A stretch of DNA of 64,000 nt, taken from Escherichia coli. GTDB lineage: Bacteria > Pseudomonadota > Gammaproteobacteria > Enterobacterales > Enterobacteriaceae. The stretch lies in NCBI RefSeq assembly GCF_044324785.1, contig NZ_CP172127.1. One strand, given 5' to 3'. Positions 51,462 through 64,000 of this stretch are shown here, in pieces; positions within the stretch are counted from its first letter, which is position 1; each line of letters begins with the position of its first letter. The position numbers and the translations under genes are program-made. The notes beneath the pieces are model-generated. The model was given only the letters and a program-made list of their open reading frames with translations, did no database searches and was not told the origin of the DNA.

Positions 51462-54400
51462 ATGAGTGAAGGACCAGGCGGGCCACAGGGAGCGACCGCA
51501 GGCGGTACGCTGGCAATGCGAATGCTGTCACAGCAGGCGATGGTCGCCAGCCAGATGAAACGGGCAGCCAACGACAAAGCCATTGCACAGATGTTGGCAT
51601 CAAAAAAGTCTGGCCCCCCCGCCGCCAGGCTGGGCGATGAAATTCAGCACAAGAGTTTTTTGGGGGCGCTGGCAGGGGCCGTGCTGGGGGCGATAGTGAC
51701 CATCGCAGAAGGTTGCCTGATTATCGCCGCCTGTGCCACCGGCCCTTATGCGCTGGTTCTGGTGCCTGCGCTGATGTATGCCAGCTATAAGGCGAGTGAT
51801 TATGTGGAGGAGAAACAGAACCAGCTTGAATCCTGGATAAACAGCTTTTGTGACAAGGACGGGGCCATCAATACTGGTTCTAAAAATGTAAACATTAACG
51901 GAAAGCCCGCTGCCAGGGCCGCCGTCACACTTCCCCCTCCTCCCCTGACTGAAGCAATACCCTCTCCACCACAGGGGGAACCTTCATGGGGGGATATTGC
52001 CACTGACCTGCTTGAATCGGCAGCGGAAAAAGCAGTGCCACTGGCGAAGGCCTGGGGGAACGCTGTTATCACCCTGACGGACAGCAATGCCAGTTTTATG
52101 GATCGCTTATGTGCAGGCACATCGCTTCTGTTTCCCTACGGCCCGGTATTAATGGAGTTTGCCACCATGGTGGGCGGGCGTGGCGAAATCAAAAAAGACG
52201 TGGATTTCCCGGAAGCCGGTGAAGACACGGCGCTCTGCGACAAGGAGACTAAACCGCCGAGGATAGCCCAGGGCAGCAGCAACGTCTTCATCAACAATCA
52301 GCCTGCCGCGCGCAAGGGCGACAAACTGGAGTGCAGCGCGGCAATCGTGGAAGGTTCGCCGGACGTCTTTATTGGGGGTGAGCAGGTCACCTATCTGGAT
52401 ATCCAGCCGGAGTTCCCGCCGTGGCAGAGAATGATCCTGGGGGGAATAACGATAGCCAGCTATCTTCTGCCGCCAGCGGGACTGCTGGGAAAAATGAAGA
52501 ATCTGGCGAGACTCGGCAAACTGGGAAACCTGCTGGGGAAAAGCGGGAAGCTGCTGGGCGCAAAACTCGGCGCATTGCTGAGCAGAACAAAAAATGCCCT
52601 GAAAAATACGTATAACGTCCTGAAAAAGTTTATCAAAGATCCGGTTGACCCGGTAACCGGCGCGTACTGCGACGAACGTACCGACTTCACCCTGGGCCAG
52701 ACCCTCCCCCTCTCCTTCACCCGTTTCCACAGTTCTGTACTGCCACTGCATGGCCTGACGGGCGTGGGCTGGAGCGACTCCTGGAGCGAATACGCCTGGG
52801 TGCGTGAACAGGGAAACCGGGTGGATATCATCAGCCAGGGAGCCACGCTGTACTTTGCCTTCGACGGAGACAGTGATACGGCGGTTAACCCGTATCACGC
52901 CCAGTATATCCTGCGCCGCCGCGACGATTACCTGGAGCTGTTCGACCGTGATGCCCTGAGCAGCCGCTTCTTTTATGACGCCTTTCCGGGAATGCGCCTG
53001 CGCCACCAGGTGACCGGCGATACCAATGATGACCGCCTGGCACACAGCCCCGGTGACCGGATGTACATGCTGGGCGGAATGAGTGACACCGCCAGCAACC
53101 GCATCACGTTTGAGCGCGACAGTCAGTACCGGATCACGGGTGTCAGTCACACCGACGGGATCCGGCTTAAACTGACGTACCACGCCAGCGGCTACCTGAA
53201 AGCCATTCACCGCACGGATAACGGCATACAGACGCTGGCGACCTACGAACAGGACGAACGGGGACGGCTGACAGAAGCGGATGCGCGGCTGGACTACCAC
53301 CTGTTTTATGAGTACGACGATGCGGACCGGATCATCCGCTGGTCCGATAACGACCAGACGTGGAGCCGTTTCACCTACGATGCACAGGGCCGGTGCGTGA
53401 CCGTCACCGGGGCGGAAGGCTATTACAACGCCACGCTGGACTATGGTGACGGCTGCACTTCCGTGACGGACGGCAAGGGCATTCACCGTTATTACTATGA
53501 TCCTGACGGCAATATCCTGCGGGAAGACGCGCCGGACGGCAGTACCACCACGTATGAATGGGATGAATTCCATCACCTGCTGGCCCGCCACTCCCCTGCC
53601 GGACGGGTGGAGAAATTTGAATACAACGCCGTACACGGTCAGTTAAGCCGTTACACGGCGGCAGACGGCGCGGTGTGGCAGTACCGCTATGATGAGCGCG
53701 GCCTGCTCAGCAACATCACCGACCCTGCCGGGCAGACGTGGACACAGCAGTGTGATGAACGCGGCCTGCCGGTAAGTCTGGTGTCGCCACAGGGCGAAGA
53801 GACCCGGCTGGCGTACACGCCACAGGGGCTGCTGTCGGGGATATTCCGCCAGGATGAACGGCGTCTGGGCATAGAGTACGACCACCACAACCGGCCGGAA
53901 ACACTCACCGACGTGATGGGCCGTGAACACCACACCGAATACAGCGGTCACGACCTGCCGGTGAAGATGCGCGGCCCCGGCGGTCAGTCAGTGCGGTTAC
54001 AGTGGCAGCAGCACCATAAACTGAGTGGCCTTGAGCGGGCAGGAACCGGCGCGGAAGGATTCCGCTACGACCGCCACGGCAACCTGCTGGCGTACACGGA
54101 CGGTAACGGCGTTGTCTGGACAATGGAATACGGCCCGTTCGATTTGCCGGTGGCGCGAACGGACGGTGAAGGCCACCGCTGGCAGTACCGCTACGATAAA
54201 GACACGCTGCAACTGACAGAAGTCATCAATCCGCAGGGTGAGTCATACCGTTATATTCTCGACAACTGTGGCCGGGTGACGGAAGAGCGTGACTGGGGCG
54301 GCGTGGTCTGGCGTTACCGCTATGACGCCGATGGCCTGTGTACCGCCAGGGTTAACGGCCTGGAGGAAACTATCCTCTACAGCCGGGACGCCGCAGGCCG

Positions 54401-56324
54401 CCTGGCAGAAGTCATCACCCCGGAAGGCAAAACGCAGTATGCGTATGACAAATCCGGCAGGCTGACGGGTATCTTCAGCCCGGACGGCACATCACAGCGC
54501 ACCGGCTACGACGAACGCGGGCGGGTGAATGTCACCACTCAGGGCAGACGGGCCATTGAGTACCACCACCCCGATGAACACACCGTTATCCGCTGTATCC
54601 TGCCACCGGAAGATGAACGCGACAGACACCCCGGTGAATCCCTGCTGAAAACCACCTACCGCTACAACGCCGCCGGAGAACTGACGGAGGTTATCCTGCC
54701 GGGGGATGAGACGCTGACGTTCAGCCGTGATGAGGCAGGACGTGAAGTGCTCCGGCACAGTAACCGGGGTTTTGCCTGTGAACAGGGCTGGAATGCAGCC
54801 GGTCAGCTTACCAGCCAGCGCGCCGGATTTTTCCCGGCGGAAGCCACATGGGGCGGACTGCTCCCCTCACTGGTGCGGGAGTACCGTTACGACAGCGCGG
54901 GCAATGTGTCGGCTGTCACCAGCCGGGAAGACTACGGACGGGAAACACGGCGGGAGTACCGGCTGGACCGGAACGGCCAGGTCACAACGGTGACAGCCTC
55001 AGGCACCGGGCTGGGCTATGGCGAAGGCGACGAGACTTATGGCTATGACAGCTGCGGCTACCTGAAGGCGCAGTCTGCGGGCAGGCACCGGATAAGTGAA
55101 GAGACTGACCAGTATGCCGGAGGCCACCGGCTGAAACAGGCCGGAAACACGCAGTATGACTATGACGCCGCAGGCCGGATGGTCAGCCGCACCAGACACC
55201 GTGACGGCTACCGCCCGGAAACAGAGCGGTTCCGGTGGGACAGCCGGGACCAGCTGACCGGGTATTGCAGCGCACAGGGGGAGCAGTGGGAATACCGCCA
55301 CGACGCCAGCGGCAGGCGGACGGAAAAACGCTGCGACCGGAAGAAAATCCGTTTTACGTACCTGTGGGACGGCGACAATATTGCGGAAATCCGGGAATAC
55401 CGCGATGATAAACTGTACAGCGTACGGCACCTGGTGTTTAACGGCTTTGAGCTGGTAAGCCAGCAGTGCAGCCGGGTACGGCAGGCGCATCCGTCCGTGG
55501 CCCCGCAGTGGGTGACGCGAACGAATTATGCGGTGAGCGACCTGACAGGCCGCCCGCTGATGCTCTTTAACAGTGAAGGTAAAACCGTCTGGCGGCCGGG
55601 ACAGACCAGCCTGTGGGGGCTGGCACTCAGCCTGCCCGCAGACACCGGCTACCCGGACCCGCGCGGGGAACTGGACCCGGAAGCCCCCCCCGGCCTGCTG
55701 TATGCGGGACAGTGGCAGGATACGGAATCGGGGCTGTGCTATAACCGGTTCCGGTATTACGAGCCGGAAACCGGAATGTACCTGGTGAGTGATCCGCTGG
55801 GGTTGCAGGGAGGTGAGCAGACTTACCGGTATGTGCCTAATCCTTGTGGGTATGTTGATCCGCTGGGGCTGGCAAAAACCAGTATTATAAAATCTTCTAC
55901 AGGCAAAATCCCACAAGGGTTAACAAAAAGCGAATTTGAGATTTTTTCAAAAAAATTAAAGGATGTATTAGCCCGAGAGGGAATCTCGACAGAGAATGTG
56001 TTTGTACATGGCAGTAGAGCCAGAGGAGATGCTGTATCAGGTGTTTCAGATATTGATATAAAAGTGATCCTTAGTGATAAAGATTTTGGTGCCTTTGCAG
56101 CAAGACGTATTGCTGAGTCCTCAGGAAGGACTCGAAATTTAATCAGGAAGGCCGTTGCTAAAAATCAAAAAATAAATTCAAGAGGAATTTCTAAAACTTT
56201 TGAATCTACTGTATGGGATGAGGTTTTCACTACCTTACCAAAAGGTGAGTTTTCAAGCATTCAAGTTTCTGTTATGACCAAAACTTCACCATTCAACACT
56301 AATCCGAGTATTATATTACCATGA
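51462..56324 (+). CDS. prePAAR/PAAR-domain Rhs effector with C-terminal polymorphic toxin domain, 1620 aa
   Basis: N-terminal AARLGDEIQH prePAAR motif and TM helices, split PAAR region, YD/Rhs repeats, PxxxxDPxGL-type demarcation (PNPCGYVDPLGL), then an AT-rich 150-aa C-terminal extension. Confidence 0.92.
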   Translation: MSEGPGGPQGATAGGTLAMRMLSQQAMVASQMKRAANDKAIAQMLASKKSGPPAARLGDEIQHKSFLGALAGAVLGAIVTIAEGCLIIAACATGPYALVLVPALMYASYKASDYVEEKQNQLESWINSFCDKDGAINTGSKNVNINGKPAARAAVTLPPPPLTEAIPSPPQGEPSWGDIATDLLESAAEKAVPLAKAWGNAVITLTDSNASFMDRLCAGTSLLFPYGPVLMEFATMVGGRGEIKKDVDFPEAGEDTALCDKETKPPRIAQGSSNVFINNQPAARKGDKLECSAAIVEGSPDVFIGGEQVTYLDIQPEFPPWQRMILGGITIASYLLPPAGLLGKMKNLARLGKLGNLLGKSGKLLGAKLGALLSRTKNALKNTYNVLKKFIKDPVDPVTGAYCDERTDFTLGQTLPLSFTRFHSSVLPLHGLTGVGWSDSWSEYAWVREQGNRVDIISQGATLYFAFDGDSDTAVNPYHAQYILRRRDDYLELFDRDALSSRFFYDAFPGMRLRHQVTGDTNDDRLAHSPGDRMYMLGGMSDTASNRITFERDSQYRITGVSHTDGIRLKLTYHASGYLKAIHRTDNGIQTLATYEQDERGRLTEADARLDYHLFYEYDDADRIIRWSDNDQTWSRFTYDAQGRCVTVTGAEGYYNATLDYGDGCTSVTDGKGIHRYYYDPDGNILREDAPDGSTTTYEWDEFHHLLARHSPAGRVEKFEYNAVHGQLSRYTAADGAVWQYRYDERGLLSNITDPAGQTWTQQCDERGLPVSLVSPQGEETRLAYTPQGLLSGIFRQDERRLGIEYDHHNRPETLTDVMGREHHTEYSGHDLPVKMRGPGGQSVRLQWQQHHKLSGLERAGTGAEGFRYDRHGNLLAYTDGNGVVWTMEYGPFDLPVARTDGEGHRWQYRYDKDTLQLTEVINPQGESYRYILDNCGRVTEERDWGGVVWRYRYDADGLCTARVNGLEETILYSRDAAGRLAEVITPEGKTQYAYDKSGRLTGIFSPDGTSQRTGYDERGRVNVTTQGRRAIEYHHPDEHTVIRCILPPEDERDRHPGESLLKTTYRYNAAGELTEVILPGDETLTFSRDEAGREVLRHSNRGFACEQGWNAAGQLTSQRAGFFPAEATWGGLLPSLVREYRYDSAGNVSAVTSREDYGRETRREYRLDRNGQVTTVTASGTGLGYGEGDETYGYDSCGYLKAQSAGRHRISEETDQYAGGHRLKQAGNTQYDYDAAGRMVSRTRHRDGYRPETERFRWDSRDQLTGYCSAQGEQWEYRHDASGRRTEKRCDRKKIRFTYLWDGDNIAEIREYRDDKLYSVRHLVFNGFELVSQQCSRVRQAHPSVAPQWVTRTNYAVSDLTGRPLMLFNSEGKTVWRPGQTSLWGLALSLPADTGYPDPRGELDPEAPPGLLYAGQWQDTESGLCYNRFRYYEPETGMYLVSDPLGLQGGEQTYRYVPNPCGYVDPLGLAKTSIIKSSTGKIPQGLTKSEFEIFSKKLKDVLAREGISTENVFVHGSRARGDAVSGVSDIDIKVILSDKDFGAFAARRIAESSGRTRNLIRKAVAKNQKINSRGISKTFESTVWDEVFTTLPKGEFSSIQVSVMTKTSPFNTNPSIILP
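55872..56321 (+). other. Rhs C-terminal toxin domain, candidate nucleotidyltransferase fold
   Basis: HGSRARGDAVSGVSDIDIKV matches the hG[GS]-x(9-13)-DhDh nucleotidyltransferase signature by eye; sharp drop in GC at the DPLGL boundary. Confidence 0.55.
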
Positions 56325-56671
56325 AGAAAAAAGATATTAGATTTGCAATATCCATTAACTCCAACTTAAGTAAGATAGAATTAATGGAAAAAATTAAAAA
56401 TATAATCCCAGGGCTTATTGAAATAACTTCCAGTGCATTAAGAGAAGAAAAAAACATGGTAGTTATTGAAGAAAATGATCTTTATGACCCTATAAAAGCA
56501 GAGGGAGCTGATGGATGGATGTATTATAAATTCATATTATCCATATTCCCATTAAAGGGAGTGGAAACAACATTAGAATATCAACGGGAATTATCTTTTC
56601 TTTTCTTAAAGAAAATAAAAGATGCGGGCCTGTTGGGTGAACTTATATGCGAGGATGATTTTCATGACTGA
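56321..56671 (+). CDS. Putative cognate immunity protein for the Rhs toxin, 116 aa
   Basis: ATG overlaps the rhs stop (ATGA); AT-rich small ORF immediately downstream of the toxin domain. Confidence 0.7.
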   Translation: MKKKDIRFAISINSNLSKIELMEKIKNIIPGLIEITSSALREEKNMVVIEENDLYDPIKAEGADGWMYYKFILSIFPLKGVETTLEYQRELSFLFLKKIKDAGLLGELICEDDFHD

Positions 56672-56719
56672 TGACCTCTACATATATCCTCAGTTCGTGG
56701 CTGGTATTACATGATCTGA

Positions 56720-56880
56720 CAGGGAAAGATCGTGGCGAAATCAAAAAAGACGTGGATTTCCCGGAAGCCGGTGAGGACACGGCGCTCTGCGACAAGGAGA
56801 ACAAACCACCGAGGATAGCCCAGGGCAGCAGCAACGTCTTCATCAACAATCAGCCTGCCGCACGCAAAGGGGACAAACTG
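56720..56880 (+). repeat. Displaced copy of an rhs PAAR-region fragment (matches about 52180-52328), flanked by 'cagggaaagat' 11-mers
   Basis: About 150 bp near-identical to the main rhs gene; left flank carries the same 11-mer that begins the H-repeat element. Confidence 0.8.
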
Positions 56881-58171
56881 CAGGGAAAGATCACGTAACG
56901 CTGCTTTTTTGTACTAAATAATTCGCATTTTATGTTTAAAAATTGAGATATTCCTCATTACCTAAAGCTGTTTTTTATTGCTTATACATGATCAAATACT
57001 CCTTACATAATTAAGGAGAACAAAATGGAACTTAAAAAATTGATGGAACATATTTCTGTTATCCCCGATTACAGACAAGCATGGAAAGTAGAACATAAAT
57101 TGTCAGATATTCTACTGTTGACTATTTGCGCCGTCATTTGTGGTGCAGAAGGCTGGGAAGATATAGAGGATTTTGGTGAAACACATCTCGATTTTTTGAA
57201 GCAATATGGTGATTTTGAAAATGGTATTCCTGTCCACGATACCATTGCCAGAGTTGTATCCTGTATCAGTCCTGCAAAATTTCACGAGTGCTTTATTAAC
57301 TGGATGCGAGATTGCCATACTTCAGATGATAAAGACGTTATTGCAATCGATGGAAAAACACTCCGGCATTCTTATGACAAGAGTCGCCGCAGGGGAGCGA
57401 TTCATGTCATTAGTGCGTTCTCAACAATGCACAGTCTGGTCATCGGACAGATCAGGACGGATGAGAAATCTAATGAGATTACAGCTATCCCAGAACTTCT
57501 TAACATGCTGGATATTAAAGGAAAAATCATCACAACTGATGCGATGGGTTGCCAGAAAGATATTGCAGAGAAGATACAAAAACAGGGCGGTGATTATTTA
57601 TTCGCTGTAAAAGGAAATCAGGGGCGGCTTAATAAAGCCTTTGAGGAAAAATTCCCACTGAAAGAATTAAATAATCCAGAGCATGATAGTTACGCAATTA
57701 GTGAAAAGAGTCACGGCAGAGAAGAAATCCGACTTCATATTGTTTGCGATGTCCCTGATGAACTTATTGATTTCACGTTTGAATGGAAAGGGCTGAAGAA
57801 ATTATGCATAGCAGTCTCCTTTCGCTCAATAATAGCAGAGCAAAAGAAAGAGCCAGAAATGACGGTCAGATATTATATCAGTTCTGCTGATTTAAACACA
57901 GAAAAGTTCGCCACAGCAATCCGAAACCACTGGCACGTGGAGAATAAGCTGCACTGGCGTCTGGATGTGGTAATGAATGAAGACGACTGCAAAATAAGAA
58001 GAGGAAATGCAGCAGAATTATTTTCAGGGATACGGCACATCGCTATTAATATTTTGACGAATGATAAGGTATTCAAGGCAGGGTTAAGACGTAAGATACG
58101 AAAAGCAGCTATGGACAGAAACTACATGGCGTCAGTCCTTGCGGGGAGCGGGCTTTCGTAATCTTTCCCTG
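56881..58171 (+). mobile_element. H-repeat (ISAs1-family) insertion sequence, complete copy, about 1.29 kb
   Basis: Terminal inverted repeats cagggaaagatcacg (left) and cgtaatctttccctg (right); contains an intact transposase ORF. Confidence 0.85.
57025..58161 (+). CDS. ISAs1-family (H-repeat-associated) DDE transposase, 378 aa
   Basis: Full ORF with AAGGAG ribosome-binding site; [50 protein letters not shown]... typical of E. coli H-repeat ORF-H proteins. Confidence 0.88.
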
Positions 58172-58174
58172 GAC

Positions 58175-58396
58175 ATGACGATTATTGTTCGTTCAAATCC
58201 GAGTAAAGCCGCTATTCTTGAAGAATTTTTACATGGTACACAAGAGAAACTAGGAATAGCTGAAAAATTAGGACGTTATGGACTAGGGAGTGCAGAAACG
58301 CACGTTAAGGATTTCATGATAAGACACAAAAAAATGCTTGGGTTATCTGATGAGGATGTAGCAATACTCAAAATATTGAAAGACAAGGGGTTGTGA
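58175..58396 (+). CDS. Hypothetical small protein, 73 aa (possible toxin C-terminal remnant or immunity protein)
   Basis: ATG 3 nt after the IS right end; ORF-track frame 58139..58396 begins inside the IS. Confidence 0.35.
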   Translation: MTIIVRSNPSKAAILEEFLHGTQEKLGIAEKLGRYGLGSAETHVKDFMIRHKKMLGLSDEDVAILKILKDKGL

Positions 58397-58683
58397 TGAA
58401 TATAATTCTGCCGATAAAAGATATATTTATTATTGCGGGAAACATAGTTTTTAGCGTTTTATACAATGAACATATTGAGTTCCCATGCCGCTGCCAATTA
58501 CTATCTTCAAATTCTGAAGTTATGCAAGAGTTATATATTGAAAAAGAGTTATTTATTAAACGCACTACAGAAAATGATTGTCGTGCTTTAGTGTTAAGAG
58601 GAACATTGGAATACTTATTTGATGAAATTATTGCTGGCGATTGTGCATTGGCCTTATTACAAAAAGAAATAAAAAAAGATTAA
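58393..58683 (+). CDS. Hypothetical protein, 96 aa, candidate orphan immunity protein
   Basis: ATGA overlap with the preceding ORF; AT-rich; position within the Rhs orphan array. Confidence 0.45.
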   Translation: MMNIILPIKDIFIIAGNIVFSVLYNEHIEFPCRCQLLSSNSEVMQELYIEKELFIKRTTENDCRALVLRGTLEYLFDEIIAGDCALALLQKEIKKD

Positions 58684-58895
58684 TCCAATATGTAGAACTG
58701 GACAATACCCATCTTTTAACAATGAACTTCGTAATTTTTATCTTAGAAATAATGCTACATTATATGAGGTATATCATGAAGTAATTCATGCCAAGCAATT
58801 TGCGAAAATATTTCTATCGGAGGTGCTGATGCACCATCTAATATGAGACTTATGGATATAATGACACATACAACTCATCATAAATATTACAGGCC

Positions 58896-59264
58896 TTGGG
58901 AATGATAAATAAAATAGTGAAAAAAATGTTGGTTTCATATAGCCCTAAGAAACCGGAGTCTAGGGGCGGGGATTTTGTTATTCCGTTGTTTTTTAATGAG
59001 AAAGTTTCTTTTTTTAGCATAAAAAGTGGCAAGCCAGTGCGATATGGTCTTATGGTATTTACAGGGAAAGTAATTACCATAGATGATATTCTTAGTAAAG
59101 TTCGTTTTCCTGATGTTATGAATGAGCAAAATATTCAACCGTTAATTGACTTTATTAATAACATTAGCGATTTTAAAATAGGGGATGTTATTGAAATTGA
59201 TGATAATGGTAAATTGAAAGTTGTGCCAAAATCAGCAGGACACCCTGTGAGTAAATTGCCATGA
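58896..59264 (+). CDS. Hypothetical protein, about 120 aa, candidate orphan immunity protein
   Basis: AT-rich ORF (ATG at 58902); its stop lies about 20 bp before orphan rhs homology begins, in the same frame. Confidence 0.45.
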   Translation: MGMINKIVKKMLVSYSPKKPESRGGDFVIPLFFNEKVSFFSIKSGKPVRYGLMVFTGKVITIDDILSKVRFPDVMNEQNIQPLIDFINNISDFKIGDVIEIDDNGKLKVVPKSAGHPVSKLP

Positions 59265-59284
59265 TACTTAAGGGGCCTGATTTT

Positions 59285-62051
59285 CTGTTTTTGCCAGTGG
59301 GACGAATACCATCACCTGCTGGCGAGGCTGTCTCCGGCAGGACGGCTGGAAAAGTTTGACTATCATCTGACACTCGGTCAGTTAAGCCGTTACACGGCGG
59401 CAGACGGCGCGGAGTGGCAGTACCGCTATGATGAGCGCGGCCTGCTCAGCAACATCACCGACCCTGCCGGGCAGACGTGGACACAGCAGTGCGATGAACG
59501 CGGCCTGCCGGTGAGTCTGGTGTCGCCACAGGGCGAAGAGACCCGGCTGGCGTACACCGCTCAGGGGCTGCTGTCGGGGATATTCCGCCAGGATGAACGG
59601 CGTCTGGGCATAGAGTACGACCACCACAACCGGCCGGAAACACTCACCGACGTGATGGGCCGTGAACACCACACCGAATACAGCGGTCACGACCTGCCGG
59701 TGAAGATGCGCGGCCCCGGCGGTCAGTCAGTGCGCTTACAGTGGCAGCAGCACCATAAACTGAGCGGCATTGAACGTGCTGGAACCGGCGCGGAAGGATT
59801 TCGCTATGACCGCCACGGCAACCTGCTGGCCTGGACGGACGGCAACGGTGTTGACTGGACAATGGAATACGGCCCGTTTGATTTGCCGGTGGCGCGAACG
59901 GACGGTGAAGGCCACCGCTGGCAGTACCGCTACGATAAAGACACGCTGCAACTGACAGAAGTCATCAATCCGCAGGGCGAGTCATACCGTTATATTCTCG
60001 ACAACTGTGGGCGGGTGACGGAAGAGCATGACTGGGGCGGCGTGGTCTGGCGTTACCGCTATGACGCCGATGGTCTGTGTACCGCCAGGGTTAACGGCCT
60101 GGAGGAAACCATCCTCTACAGCCGGGACGCCGCAGGCCGCCTGGCAGAAGTCATCACCCCGGAAGGGAAAACGCAGTATGCGTATGACAAATCCGGCAGG
60201 CTGACGGGTATCTTCAGCCCGGACGGCACATCACAGCGCACCGGCTACGACGAACGCGGGCGGGTGAATGTCACCACTCAGGGCCGACGGGCCATTGAAT
60301 ACCACCACCCCGATGAACACACCGTCATCCGCTGTATCCTGCCACCGGAAGATGAACGCGACAGACACCCCGGTGAATCCCTGCTGAAAACCACCTACCG
60401 CTACAACGCCGCCGGAGAACTGACGGAGGTTATCCTGCCGGGGGATGAGACGCTGACGTTCAGCCGTGATGAGGCAGGACGTGAAGTGCTCCGGCACAGT
60501 AACCGGGGTTTTGCCTGTGAACAGGGCTGGAATGCAGCCGGTCAGCTTACCAGCCAGCGCGCCGGATTTTTCCCGGCGGAAGCCACATGGGGCGGACTGC
60601 TCCCCTCACTGGTGCGGGAGTACCGTTACGACAGCGCGGGCAATGTGTCGGCTGTCACCAGCCGGGAAGACTACGGACGGGAAACACGGCGGGAGTACCG
60701 GCTGGACCGGAACGGCCAGGTCACAACGGTGACAGCCTCAGGCACCGGGCTGGGCTATGGCGAAGGCGACGAGACTTATGGCTATGACAGCTGCGGCTAC
60801 CTGAAGGCGCAGTCTGCGGGCAGGCACCGGATAAGTGAAGAGACTGACCAGTATGCCGGAGGCCACCGGCTGAAACAGGCCGGAAACACGCAGTATGACT
60901 ATGACGCCGCAGGCCGGATGGTCAGCCGCACCAGACACCGTGACGGCTACCGCCCGGAAACAGAGCGGTTCCGGTGGGACAGCCGGGACCAGCTGACCGG
61001 GTATTGCAGCGCACAGGGGGAGCAGTGGGAATACCGCCACGACGCCAGCGGCAGGCGGACGGAAAAACGCTGCGACCGGAAGAAAATCCGTTTTACGTAC
61101 CTGTGGGACGGCGACAATATTGCGGAAATCCGGGAATACCGCGATGATAAACTGTACAGCGTACGGCACCTGGTGTTTAACGGCTTTGAGCTGGTAAGCC
61201 AGCAGTGCAGCCGGGTACGGCAGGCGCATCCGTCCGTGGCCCCGCAGTGGGTGACGCGAACGAATTATGCGGTGAGCGACCTGACAGGCCGCCCGCTGAT
61301 GCTCTTTAACAGTGAAGGTAAAACCGTCTGGCGGCCGGGACAGACCAGCCTGTGGGGGCTGGCACTCAGCCTGCCCGCAGACACCGACTACCCGGACCCG
61401 CGCGGGGAGCTGGACCCGGAAGCCGACCCCGGCCTGCTGTATGCAGGACAGTGGCAGGATACGGAATCAGGGCTGTGCTATAACCGGTTCCGGTACTACG
61501 AGCCGGAAACCGGAATGTACCTGGTGAGTGATCCGCTGGGGTTGCAGGGGGGTGAGCAGACTTACCGGTATGTGCCGAATCCTTTAAGATATAAAGATTT
61601 CTATGGGCTTAGTAAGAGTTCAATAATAACGAGAGGAAAGAATGCTGGTCATGGCTATGCAGCCAGCGTTACACCTGGAGGCAAAGGTACGGTGTTGGCT
61701 GGTCACGGAGGATCAAAATTTGGCGATAAAATGATTATACCAGAAGGCGTATCGATAACGATGCCGAGAGATGGTATTAAAATATCAGATATGACTGGAA
61801 AATTACTGGAATCTGGTAATGTGGATGATATAATTAAAGCTGCAAGTAATAATCCTCGTGTAGCTAGCGATCTTGAAGGTTGGGTTACTTATTTGCCCGG
61901 CACTGAAATCCCTGATTATATTTTAAAACCACCCACCAATCTTAACATACTGGAAAATTCAGTAACGGTGAACACTTCAACTTATTTATCTCAAATGGTA
62001 AATGCTGGTCAAGGTAATGTAATCTGGGCTGCATGCACCGAATTTTTTTAA
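59285..62051 (+). CDS. Orphan rhs C-terminal cassette (Rhs core repeats plus alternative toxin domain); no canonical ATG, first in-frame start is GTG at 59511
   Basis: Near-identical to the main rhs from about aa 700 onward, then diverges at a degenerate PNPLRYKDFYGL motif into a distinct roughly 147-aa AT-rich C-terminus. Confidence 0.8.
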
Positions 62052-62065
62052 CGCGGGGTAATCGT

Positions 62066-62548
62066 ATGTATTTTAAAGATGATACTGACTATACATATTT
62101 CCTTCCTAATGAATATTTTTTACACGGGGTGAAAAATGTGGGCTGGATAGACAGAGAACACCCCTTCACAAAAGGGATTAGTGACGCTGAATTTATTGAA
62201 AAGTTAAAAGCAATAATTCTAACAGAGAATGAAGCAACTTGTTTTTCAGTTAATAAAATAAGAGGATTTCACAAATGTAATTTTTGCAATAGTGAAATGA
62301 TAACAATAACCGATGGAAGAAAAAAAGGATACCTTGGCATGAGTGAAATATGGATTCCATCCATCCACCATAATGAGTATTACGCGTTTCCTTCATTAAT
62401 TTTCCATTATATAACATCTCACATGTATAGACCACCAGAGGACTTTATTGTATCTGTTTTAAACTTGAATTTAAGCGAGAGTTTTTGCGCTCAAAACATA
62501 TATGACAATAAAATTAAGGAATTAAAAATAGACTTCTGGTTTCGTTAA
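62066..62548 (+). CDS. Putative immunity protein for the orphan Rhs toxin, 160 aa
   Basis: ORF-track frame 62033..62548; ATG at 62066 just after the orphan toxin stop; AT-rich, Cys/His-containing. Confidence 0.6.
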   Translation: MYFKDDTDYTYFLPNEYFLHGVKNVGWIDREHPFTKGISDAEFIEKLKAIILTENEATCFSVNKIRGFHKCNFCNSEMITITDGRKKGYLGMSEIWIPSIHHNEYYAFPSLIFHYITSHMYRPPEDFIVSVLNLNLSESFCAQNIYDNKIKELKIDFWFR

Positions 62549-62559
62549 AGCTGGTAATT

Positions 62560-62917
62560 TAACTTATCGGGAATACCGCTATGATGGCAGTTTCAGACGG
62601 ACGGAGAAATGCTGTCAGCAAAAAGACTTCCGCTTCGCGTATCTGTGGGGCATGGGGATAATTTATCTTCATCAATTGATATATTGATTAATGGCAAGGA
62701 GGCCATTGAAATTCCGTAAGGCCAACTTGATATGACGCCTGGCACACAGCCCCGGTGACCGGATGTATATGCTGGGCGGGATGAGCGACACCGCCAGCAA
62801 CCGCATCACGTTTGAGCGCGACAGCCAGTACCGGATCACGGGTGTCAGTCACACCGACGGGATCCGGCTTAAACTGACGTACCACGCCAGCGGCTACCTG
62901 AAAGCCATTCACCGCAG
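62560..62917 (+). pseudogene. Degenerate rhs core fragments (one matching about 55270-55380, one matching 53038-53214 of the main rhs)
   Basis: Two short stretches of rhs homology, the first degenerate, the second truncated by the H-repeat insertion at 62915. Confidence 0.7.
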
Positions 62918-64000
62918 GGAAAGATCACGTAACGCTGCTTTTTTGTACTAAGCAATTCGCATTTTATGTTCAGTATTTGAGATACTCCTTATAACACAAA
63001 CCTGTTTTTCATAGCTTATATATGTAGGAAAAGATCACGTAACGCTCCTTTTTTGTACTAAATAATTCGCATTTTATGTTTAAAAATTGAGATATTCCTC
63101 ATTACCTAAAGCTGTTTTTTATTGCTTACACATGATCAAATACTCCTTACATAATTAAGGATAACAAAATGTAACTTAAAAAATTGATGGAACATATTTC
63201 TATTATCCCCGATTACAGACAAGCCTGGAAAGTGGAACATAAATTATCGGATATTCTACTGTTGACTATTTGTGCCGTTATTTCGGGTGCAGAAGGTTGG
63301 GAAGATATAGAGGATTTTGGGGAAACACATCTCGATTTTTTAAAACAATATGGTGATTTTGAAAATGGTATTCCTGTTCACGATACCATTGCCAGAGTTG
63401 TATCCTGTATCAGCCCTGCAAAATTTCACGAGTGCTTTATTAACTGGATGCGAGATTGCCATACTTCAGATGATAAAGACGTCATCGCAATTGATGGAAA
63501 AACACTCCGGCATTCTTATGGCAAGAGTCGCCGCAGGGGAGCGATTCATGTCATTAGTGCGTTCTCAACAATGCACAGTCTGGTCATCGGACAGATCAGG
63601 ACGGATGAGAAATCCAATGAAATTACAGCTATCCCTGAACTTCTTAACATGCTGGATATTAAAGGAAAAATCATCACAACTGATGCAATGGGTTGCCAGA
63701 AAGATATTGCAGAGAAGATACAAAAACAGGGCGGTGATTATTTATTCGCTGTAAAAGGAAATCAGGGGCGGCTTAATAAAGCCTTTGAGGAAAAATTTCC
63801 ACTGAAAGAATTAAATAATCCAGAGCATGACAGTTACGCCATTAGTGAAAAGAGTCACGACAGAGAAGAAATCCGTCTTCATATTGTTTGCGATGTCCCT
63901 GATGAACTTATTGATTTCACGTTTGAATGGAAAGGACTGAAGAAATTATGCGTGGCAGTCTCCTTTCGGTCAATAATAGCAGAACAAAAGAAAGAGCCAG
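62915..64000 (+). mobile_element. Second H-repeat (ISAs1-family) element, partial (runs off the window); 5' end carries a degenerate about 110-bp duplicate of the IS left end
   Basis: cagggaaagatcacgtaacgctgc... repeated at 62915 and again (ggaaaagatcacgtaacgctcc...) at 63027; the rest is near-identical to the first copy. Confidence 0.8.
63197..64000 (+). CDS. ISAs1-family transposase, second copy, partial at window end; ancestral start codon is followed by TAA (ATG TAA) so translation could only begin at the Met7-equivalent
   Basis: aaaatgtaacttaaaaaattgatggaacat versus aaaatggaacttaaaaaattgatggaacat in copy 1; downstream frame intact to the window end. Confidence 0.6.

Follow-up and report, generated by a model that had tools for sequence, protein, structure and literature searches.

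The 64,000-nucleotide stretch of Escherichia coli contig NZ_CP172127.1 (assembly GCF_044324785.1) analyzed here, hereafter the window, contains the E. coli vgrG-DcrB-rhs island, located between cusS and nfrB. Downstream of the full-length rhs gene of this island (main rhs) lies a second rhs reading frame that has no start codon, ends in a different C-terminus (CT) and is followed by a small gene. We consider it very probable that this region is an orphan rhs-CT/rhsI module, namely a silent store of a Stv-family toxin together with a DUF7919 immunity gene. The orphan fragment encodes the last ~760 residues of the Rhs shell, an intact autoprotease (DPLGL, 17 residues, DFYGL) and a Stv toxin of 146 aa; since a start codon, a PAAR domain and an N-terminal plug are all missing, the present arrangement does not allow its production as a deliverable effector. 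The DUF7919 gene is probably expressed on its own, and its product would protect the cell against neighbors deploying Rhs-Stv or CdiA-Stv toxins. Recombination between the repeated rhs sequences would join Stv to the full-length rhs and give a PAAR-Rhs-Stv protein of 1,616 aa, and the same allele exists in other E. coli. [quoted passage not shown]

The orphan frame and its repeated core

The two rhs copies are laid out as follows (ORF, open reading frame):

51462-56324, + strand: main rhs, a PAAR-Rhs of 1,620 aa, full-length by ORF translation
53559..55845, + strand: segment of the main rhs repeated in the orphan (blastn), the upstream partner for homologous recombination
59265..59297, + strand: 5′ end of the orphan frame, after the TGA of a 122-aa ORF, with no rhs homology and no start codon
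59298..61584, + strand: orphan rhs core fragment, corresponding to about residues 700-1462 of the main protein

The orphan frame (59265-62051, + strand) opens directly 3′ of the TGA at 59262-59264 and runs to the stop codon at 62049-62051, thus comprising 929 codons with neither stop nor frameshift inside. No ATG, GTG or TTG occurs in this frame 5′ of GTG 59511, which is itself a Val codon inside the Rhs core (…LPVSLVSPQGEE…) without a Shine-Dalgarno sequence before it. A first-pass annotation, made from the sequence alone, had described a silent cassette that begins right after a stop codon without a canonical start, and re-examination of the upstream in-frame sequence, with the core-internal GTG as its first start-type codon, agrees with that description. 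An exact look-up of the 846-aa ORF started at this GTG returned no record, consistent with its treatment as a pseudogene. The fact that the 122-aa upstream ORF shares the frame of the orphan was also considered and dismissed, as the nearest in-frame stop ends any such ORF.

Alignment with blastn matched 59298-61584 to the main rhs at 53559-55845 with 97.4% identity over 2,289 columns (2,287 bp), a size far beyond chance, so that the near-identity to the main rhs core reported earlier is borne out. The fragment has neither a PAAR domain nor an N-terminal region, and the beginning of the shell is absent as well. The two copies diverge in a mosaic way, with 19 mismatches in the first 100 bp, others scattered up to 60326 and eight more after 61386. 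Between them, a tract of 1,060 bp (60327-61386 vs. 54588-55647) has zero mismatches, while its flanks are 2-19% divergent, and this pattern suggests recent gene conversion between the main and the orphan copy. Homology stops after ...YRYVPNP, beyond which the C-termini cannot be aligned, and the GC content falls from ~0.62 in the core to 0.36-0.42 in the orphan C-terminus. The switch to a different C-terminus, put at about 147 aa in the first-pass annotation, is therefore real, the new part being unalignable, AT-rich and 146 aa long.

The junction, the Stv domain and the DUF7919 gene

The 3′ part of the module consists of:

61530..61544, + strand: DPLGL, the first of the two motifs of the C-terminal aspartyl autoprotease of Rhs, identical in main and orphan
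61584..61610, + strand: variant junction patch LRYKDFYGL, in place of CGYVDPLGL in the main gene
61596-61610, + strand: second motif, DFYGL, 17 residues after the first, with its Asp kept
61611..62051, + strand: Stv-family toxin domain, 146 aa plus stop (Pfam PF21527, E = 1.4e-12)
61704-61706, + strand: His33, invariant in alignments of 55-130 Stv domains
61809-61811, + strand: Glu68, invariant or nearly so in the same alignments
62034-62036, + strand: Cys143, from the same alignments
62066-62548, + strand: DUF7919 gene, 160 aa (Pfam PF25535, E = 5.2e-34, model positions 1-125 of 126)

Concerning the junction, it had been proposed that the conserved aspartate-proline of the autoproteolytic motif is changed in the orphan and that the motif is degenerate. 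Neither view holds. The motif order in the orphan is DPLGL, then QGGEQTYRYVPNPLRYK (17 residues), then DFYGL, and when PNPCGYVDPLGL and PNPLRYKDFYGL are aligned the catalytic Asp is retained; inside the motif only Pro (to Phe) and Leu (to Tyr) are altered, and three residues upstream also change. The boundary reads PLRYKDFYGL against the consensus PxxxxDPxGL, so P, D, G and L are kept and the Pro after Asp is Phe. Within the 24 nt of the patch TTA AGA TAT AAA GAT TTC TAT GGG there are 13 nucleotide changes, and every one leaves the frame intact. It has been reported that two DPLGL motifs 17 residues apart precede the C-terminal cleavage site of Rhs proteins, that the Asp of the second motif is catalytic and that the D1338N substitution abolishes cleavage (PMC8636562). 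Cleavage in the Stv-bearing protein is predicted after the Leu encoded at 61608-61610.

DFYGL is also found outside this orphan. The identical junction and CT occur in P0172, an intact PAAR-Rhs-Stv of 1,616 aa found on 14 contigs of E. coli. In P0206 (1,601 aa), a further full-length Rhs from E. coli that belongs to the same core cluster, the second motif is DQYGL. More distant Stv-carrying proteins with junctions of the DPxG[LM] type have DNSGL (P0028) and DRTGL (P0037) at the matching position, while the orthologous CTs of Salmonella (79% identical) show the canonical junction, …CGYVDPLGL followed by SKTSVITRG. This survey covered members of the main-Rhs cluster; a word-indexed search with the 60-aa core end gave only short fragments. 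Judging from these sequences, the DFYGL patch is best regarded as an alternative junction allele and not as random decay. Since DFYGL, DQYGL, DNSGL and DRTGL occur in other carriers, including full-length Rhs proteins, the proline of the motif is not invariant among apparently functional effectors, and the "DPxGL" consensus is looser than its name implies.

The C-terminus had initially been considered impossible to assign to a fold. At the family level this no longer applies, as the Pfam match to Stv spans model positions 2-121 of 121; at the level of fold and function the statement stands, as no solved relative was found. An exhaustive phmmer search recovered 394 Stv homologues; a word-indexed homologue search with the CT had returned 4 proteins only, and the exhaustive search was needed for the rest. 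With the Leu at 61608-61610 counted as residue 1, His33 is present in 100% and Cys143 in 98% of 130 Stv sequences, and the G-H-G motif, Glu68 and the W-A-A-C motif are invariant or nearly so. In the aligned homologues the domain ends 0-12 residues from the protein C-terminus. An AlphaFold2 model based on 55 sequences reached a predicted local distance difference test (pLDDT) score of 92.6 and a predicted template modeling (pTM) score of 0.86. Foldseek comparison of this model with solved structures gave nothing significant (best E = 2.8), and PDB sequence searches in which the CT, the Stv profile or DUF7919 served as query yielded matches at chance level only. The search of AFDB50 with the model retrieved other Stv-family proteins and no annotated enzyme; the carriers, with Stv at the tip, are Rhs, WapA, CdiA, PAAR and Hint proteins. 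A scan of the CT, DUF7919 and the neighboring small ORFs against NCBIfam found nothing, the weak nucleotidyltransferase matches in that scan belonging to the main CT only.

The signature of clan CD peptidases is a hydrophobic strand followed by His-Gly and, later, a second hydrophobic strand followed by Ala-Cys. Stv contains the similar motifs TVLAGHG and NVIWAAC, and the model places strands at residues 29-31/33-36 and 136-141. Membership in clan CD was nevertheless rejected, given that the test for a caspase/haemoglobinase alpha-beta-alpha fold failed and AFDB50 gave only Stv proteins. The conserved residues suggest, at low confidence, that Stv is a thiol-dependent hydrolase or transferase using His, Glu and Cys, which we consider its most likely activity.

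The 160-aa ORF begins 14 nt after the orphan stop codon (it would be of 171 aa if started at ATG 62033) and had been named earlier as a candidate immunity protein. Comparative data favor this assignment, as a DUF7919 gene lies immediately downstream of the end of Stv in all 13 loci examined, in both Rhs and CdiA carriers. In this count L012-L014 represent one locus, and L007 and L008 the same protein in two soil metagenomes. The loci are:

L004: Superficieibacter
L005: CdiA-type carrier
L006: truncated ORF after Stv, matching the DUF7919 hidden Markov model with E = 5e-8
JGI 3300047160: Rhs of 2,879 aa, metagenome (no DNA)
L007, L008: Rhs of 2,605 aa, two soil metagenomes
L009, L010, L011: Salmonella orphans
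L012-L014: E. coli main::Stv
L015: contig-end fragment
L016: Rhs of 2,500 aa
L017: Rhs of 3,827 aa

Because DUF7919 adjoins Stv in each of these loci, on both types of carrier, it is predicted to be the cognate immunity family of Stv. No signal peptide was detected on DUF7919, which would imply a cytoplasmic target for the toxin. The immunity protein diverges faster than the toxin, with 58% identity to its Salmonella counterpart against 79% for Stv, and 35% against ~50% in the comparison with the CdiA-type locus. A single-chain Stv-linker-DUF7919 model built from a shallow alignment of 9 paired sequences had a pTM of 0.73, with 62 of its 337 residues disordered; this value is above expectation for two unplaced domains and lends weak support to a complex.

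An alternative reading is internal expression of the CT together with DUF7919 as a toxin-antitoxin-like pair of type II that would regulate the host's own growth, with transcription from a promoter inside the conserved 3′ end of the core and translation from a non-canonical or internal start. [quoted passage not shown] At the protein level, the 3′ end of the core in the window and that of Salmonella are nearly the same. In addition, a GGAGG is found 10-13 nt upstream of the in-frame codons GTG 61692 and TTG 61695 (region 61677-61697); it could mark an internal start of a stand-alone Stv, or it could be due to chance (the bases encode PGGKGTV). The two codons stand four to five codons before the invariant His. 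On the other hand, a promoter and terminator scan of 58000-63000 revealed no enrichment (10 promoter-like sites vs. 7.7 expected from shuffled sequence), all in-frame ATGs are without a Shine-Dalgarno sequence, and the fact that Stv is conserved at the tip of proteins that serve delivery (Rhs, CdiA) points to an inter-cellular role. We thus regard the internal pair as improbable.

It may also be asked whether Stv is an adhesin or a host-directed virulence factor instead of an antibacterial toxin, as RefSeq labels the orphan fragment "putative adhesin". CdiA-type carriers, which mediate contact-dependent inhibition (CDI), act on bacteria. One such carrier is among the 13 loci in which a small protein family of cytoplasmic type follows Stv, and the retention of orphan immunity genes makes sense only with a toxin that acts on bacteria. 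A preprint describes Stv on a small Shigella plasmid with no immunity gene listed, Stv together with self-cleaving C80 peptidase domains in some proteins, and AlphaFold-predicted fimbrial partners, but it also states that the adhesin annotation was never validated (10.1101/2022.08.23.504947). Our tblastn search against plasmids returned only two Ralstonia megaplasmids and no pSTV-like plasmid. An adhesin or host-directed role seems very unlikely. The wider proposal that Stv is a widespread antibacterial polymorphic toxin with no solved fold relative, a His/Glu/Cys site, neutralization by DUF7919 and delivery by Rhs (T6SS) as well as CdiA (type V secretion system, T5SS) is put forward tentatively, our confidence in the whole of it falling a little short of even.

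Recombination and turnover of the locus

As direct repeats, the main and orphan copies lie 5,739 bp apart, and an allele in which Stv is joined to the main gene exists at the same chromosomal locus. In the E. coli genome GCA_044095345.1 (L012) the order is vgrG-DcrB-rhs(1,616 aa, Stv)-DUF7919-rhs fragment-ISEc1-nfrB. Its left flank is 99.97% identical to the window (2 mismatches in 6,879 bp) and its right part is identical from 61577 to 64000, so that L012 is in effect the window minus 55846-61584 (5,739 bp). Arming of an orphan has been described for Salmonella LT2, where recombination with the main gene took place over 522 bp at 95% identity (PMC3967940). The proposal, made at the outset, that the cassette could be mobilized into the main rhs by homologous recombination is supported: judged by its sequence, the cassette is a good substrate for recombination with the main rhs, far better than the one in LT2, and a natural main::Stv allele occupies the locus. 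A complication is that this allele did not come from a crossover within the identical tract.

A main × orphan crossover inside the 1,060-bp tract was rejected as the origin of L012, because it would have left orphan-type bases at 61387-61550, and L012 is main-type at the 8 diagnostic sites of that interval. Several points weigh against the reading favored here. At each of the 61 diagnostic sites up to 61550 the base in L012 is that of the main gene, and the change to orphan-type comes only in the 26-bp interval before heterology. Either L012 would be ancestral and the window would have gained a 5.7-kb block, or an exchange would have occurred at the very end of the repeat; the L012 allele may therefore be the ancestor and not the product of the arrangement in the window. 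A simple deletion between the repeats would also remove the main immunity gene (56321-56671), and the same loss led Koskiniemi et al. to propose that duplication comes first (PMC3967940). Both the toxicity of Stv and the protection by DUF7919 are predictions from sequence, most E. coli with the module have already lost the toxin, so that the copy in the window may be heading for decay, and the window does not tell whether the T6SS of this strain works.

The loss of the toxin is evident in population data. The DUF7919 gene is present at 99-100% nucleotide identity in 58 of 5,426 complete E. coli genomes, and 57 of these (~1% of the 5,426) have deleted the sequence corresponding to window 60301-61955, strain N3 alone keeping the toxin. 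In L003 (NZ_CP011416, 8732-9605) and 56 other genomes, what the deletion leaves of the CT is its last ~96 nt, now fused to a core fragment of 272 bp. Likewise, the exact DUF7919 protein was found on at least 1000 contigs vs. about 28 for the intact CT. Retention of an immunity gene after its toxin is lost is what one expects if the gene is protective.

The surroundings of the module contain the following further elements:

56321-56671: main immunity gene, 116 aa, between the main rhs and the orphan
56671-56898: duplicated PAAR fragment, 75-aa ORF (…GRGEIKKDVDFPEAGEDTALCDKE…), a repeat of a portion of the main-rhs PAAR region
57025-58161 and ~63020-64000: ISAs1-family transposases (H-repeat/ISEc1-like), one within the rhs array and one after it
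58139-58396 and 58393-58683: small ORFs, 99% identical to DNA after a different orphan rhs CT in strain OkiPb01684
within 58139-59264 (coordinates approximate): zincin-like toxin remnant, from the N3 annotation
58896-59264: 122-aa ORF, after the zincin-like remnant and directly 5′ of the orphan frame
62732-62920: rhs core fragment of 190 bp, 96.8% identical to 53029-53218, 3′ of the DUF7919 gene

Other remnants, the PAAR fragment and the ISAs1 copies surround the cassette, which thus forms a single member of a series of displaced modules. The layout of strain N3 is the same, with 100% identity to the window in the CT/immunity region. The small ORFs in 58139-59264 are probably further orphan immunity genes. 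The PAAR fragment follows right after the main immunity gene, just 5′ of the ISAs1 transposase, and its N3 counterpart is recorded in RefSeq as a partial PAAR-domain pseudogene. The two ISAs1-family copies are ~96% identical over their shared part and could mediate rearrangements of the array. The 190-bp rhs fragment is also found after DUF7919 in L012 and in strain CFSAN029787. As for the main gene, its CT (55872-56324) gave weak matches to nucleotidyltransferase folds (cyclase of the cyclic-oligonucleotide-based anti-phage signaling system, CBASS, and MntA; E ~1e-3) and is labeled by RefSeq as a nucleotidyltransferase domain, while the 116-aa immunity gene had no family match; the main rhs toxin likewise appears uncharacterized.

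With such a record it is natural to ask whether the cassette is a decaying relic, that is, a former main C-terminus or a horizontally acquired module, displaced downstream, that is functionless but for its immunity gene and whose toxin is heading for deletion and never redeployed. The 57 genomes that keep DUF7919 without the toxin, the excess of contigs with the exact DUF7919 protein, the pattern of single-nucleotide differences in L012, which fits an ancestral L012, and the many remnants of other rhs, PAAR and toxin sequences scattered through the locus along with ISAs1 copies are all in line with this view. It is less easily reconciled with a 929-codon frame free of stops and frameshifts, with the integrity of all candidate catalytic residues and both autoprotease Asp residues, or with the mismatch-free tract, which implies recent gene conversion with the main gene. 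We therefore find a mere relic rather unlikely; it is moreover compatible with the orphan rhs-CT/rhsI module that we favor, as a later stage of the same life cycle.

Comparison with known systems

The architecture itself is of a familiar kind, orphan rhs cassettes being understood as toxin/immunity reservoirs. The new points are modest and concern the Stv-DUF7919 pairing and the proline-less autocleavage motif in full-length effectors. The pairing provides a testable toxin/immunity hypothesis for a "putative adhesin" family and a domain of unknown function, and it bears on the interpretation of the Stv gene associated with expanding Shigella lineages; if it is correct, a "putative adhesin" tied to the success of Shigella lineages would be reinterpreted as an interbacterial weapon. 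DFYGL in intact effectors also makes it easy to probe the residue requirements of the Rhs aspartyl autoprotease, and the proline of the DPxGL motif would be dispensable if proteins with DFYGL and DQYGL are indeed cleaved. Finally, a single locus is seen as an armed main::Stv, as a stored orphan and as an immunity-only form; these three natural states, with nearly identical flanks, make it a clean system for the study of effector turnover.

The closest known case is the rhs-main/rhs-orphan pair of Salmonella Typhimurium LT2 (STM0291/STM0292) with its rhsI genes. There, too, a full-length T6SS rhs is followed downstream by a start-less core fragment that carries another CT and has an immunity gene to itself, and homology of the orphan to the main core permits the arming recombination (Koskiniemi et al., 2014; PMC3967940). 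The window differs in the extent of the homology (2,287 bp at 97.4%, of which 1,060 bp are identical, vs. 522 bp at 95% in LT2), in the ~3.4 kb of other remnants and an ISAs1 element between main and orphan, in the CT and immunity families, which here are Stv and DUF7919, and in that main::Stv is known only as a natural allele of other strains. Resemblance extends to the orphan cdiA-CT/cdiI and rhs-CT/rhsI arrays of E. coli and its relatives (Poole et al., 2011; PMC3150448) and to sequentially displaced T6SS effectors that leave immunity arrays (PMC5361080). Shared features are tandem remnants of toxin/immunity modules downstream of an active gene, immunity genes that outlast their toxins, and a CT family common to CDI and Rhs carriers; the window differs in that its toxin and immunity families are predicted from sequence and models.

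The Stv protein of De Silva et al. (10.1101/2022.08.23.504947) shares with the domain in the window the match to the hidden Markov model, the C-terminal position, the conserved His and Cys and the lack of a solved structural relative. It differs in that it stands alone, encoded by a Shigella plasmid of 2.7 kb, and is treated there as a factor of success or virulence, whereas here Stv is the CT of a T6SS Rhs with a conserved DUF7919 partner; the word "immunity" is absent from the text of that preprint. Clan CD cysteine peptidases, such as caspases and the C80 cysteine peptidase domain (CPD) of MARTX and TcdB, resemble Stv in its VLAGHG ... VIWAAC motifs, but the His and Cys of Stv are 110 residues apart and an extra invariant Glu is present. 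The Rhs/TcC aspartyl autoprotease, represented by D1338 of Photorhabdus laumondii Rhs1 (PMC8636562), likewise has a pair of D-x-x-G-L motifs at a spacing of 17 residues, an Asp in the second of them and a toxin directly after it; here the second motif is DFYGL and not DPLGL, and cleavage is predicted.

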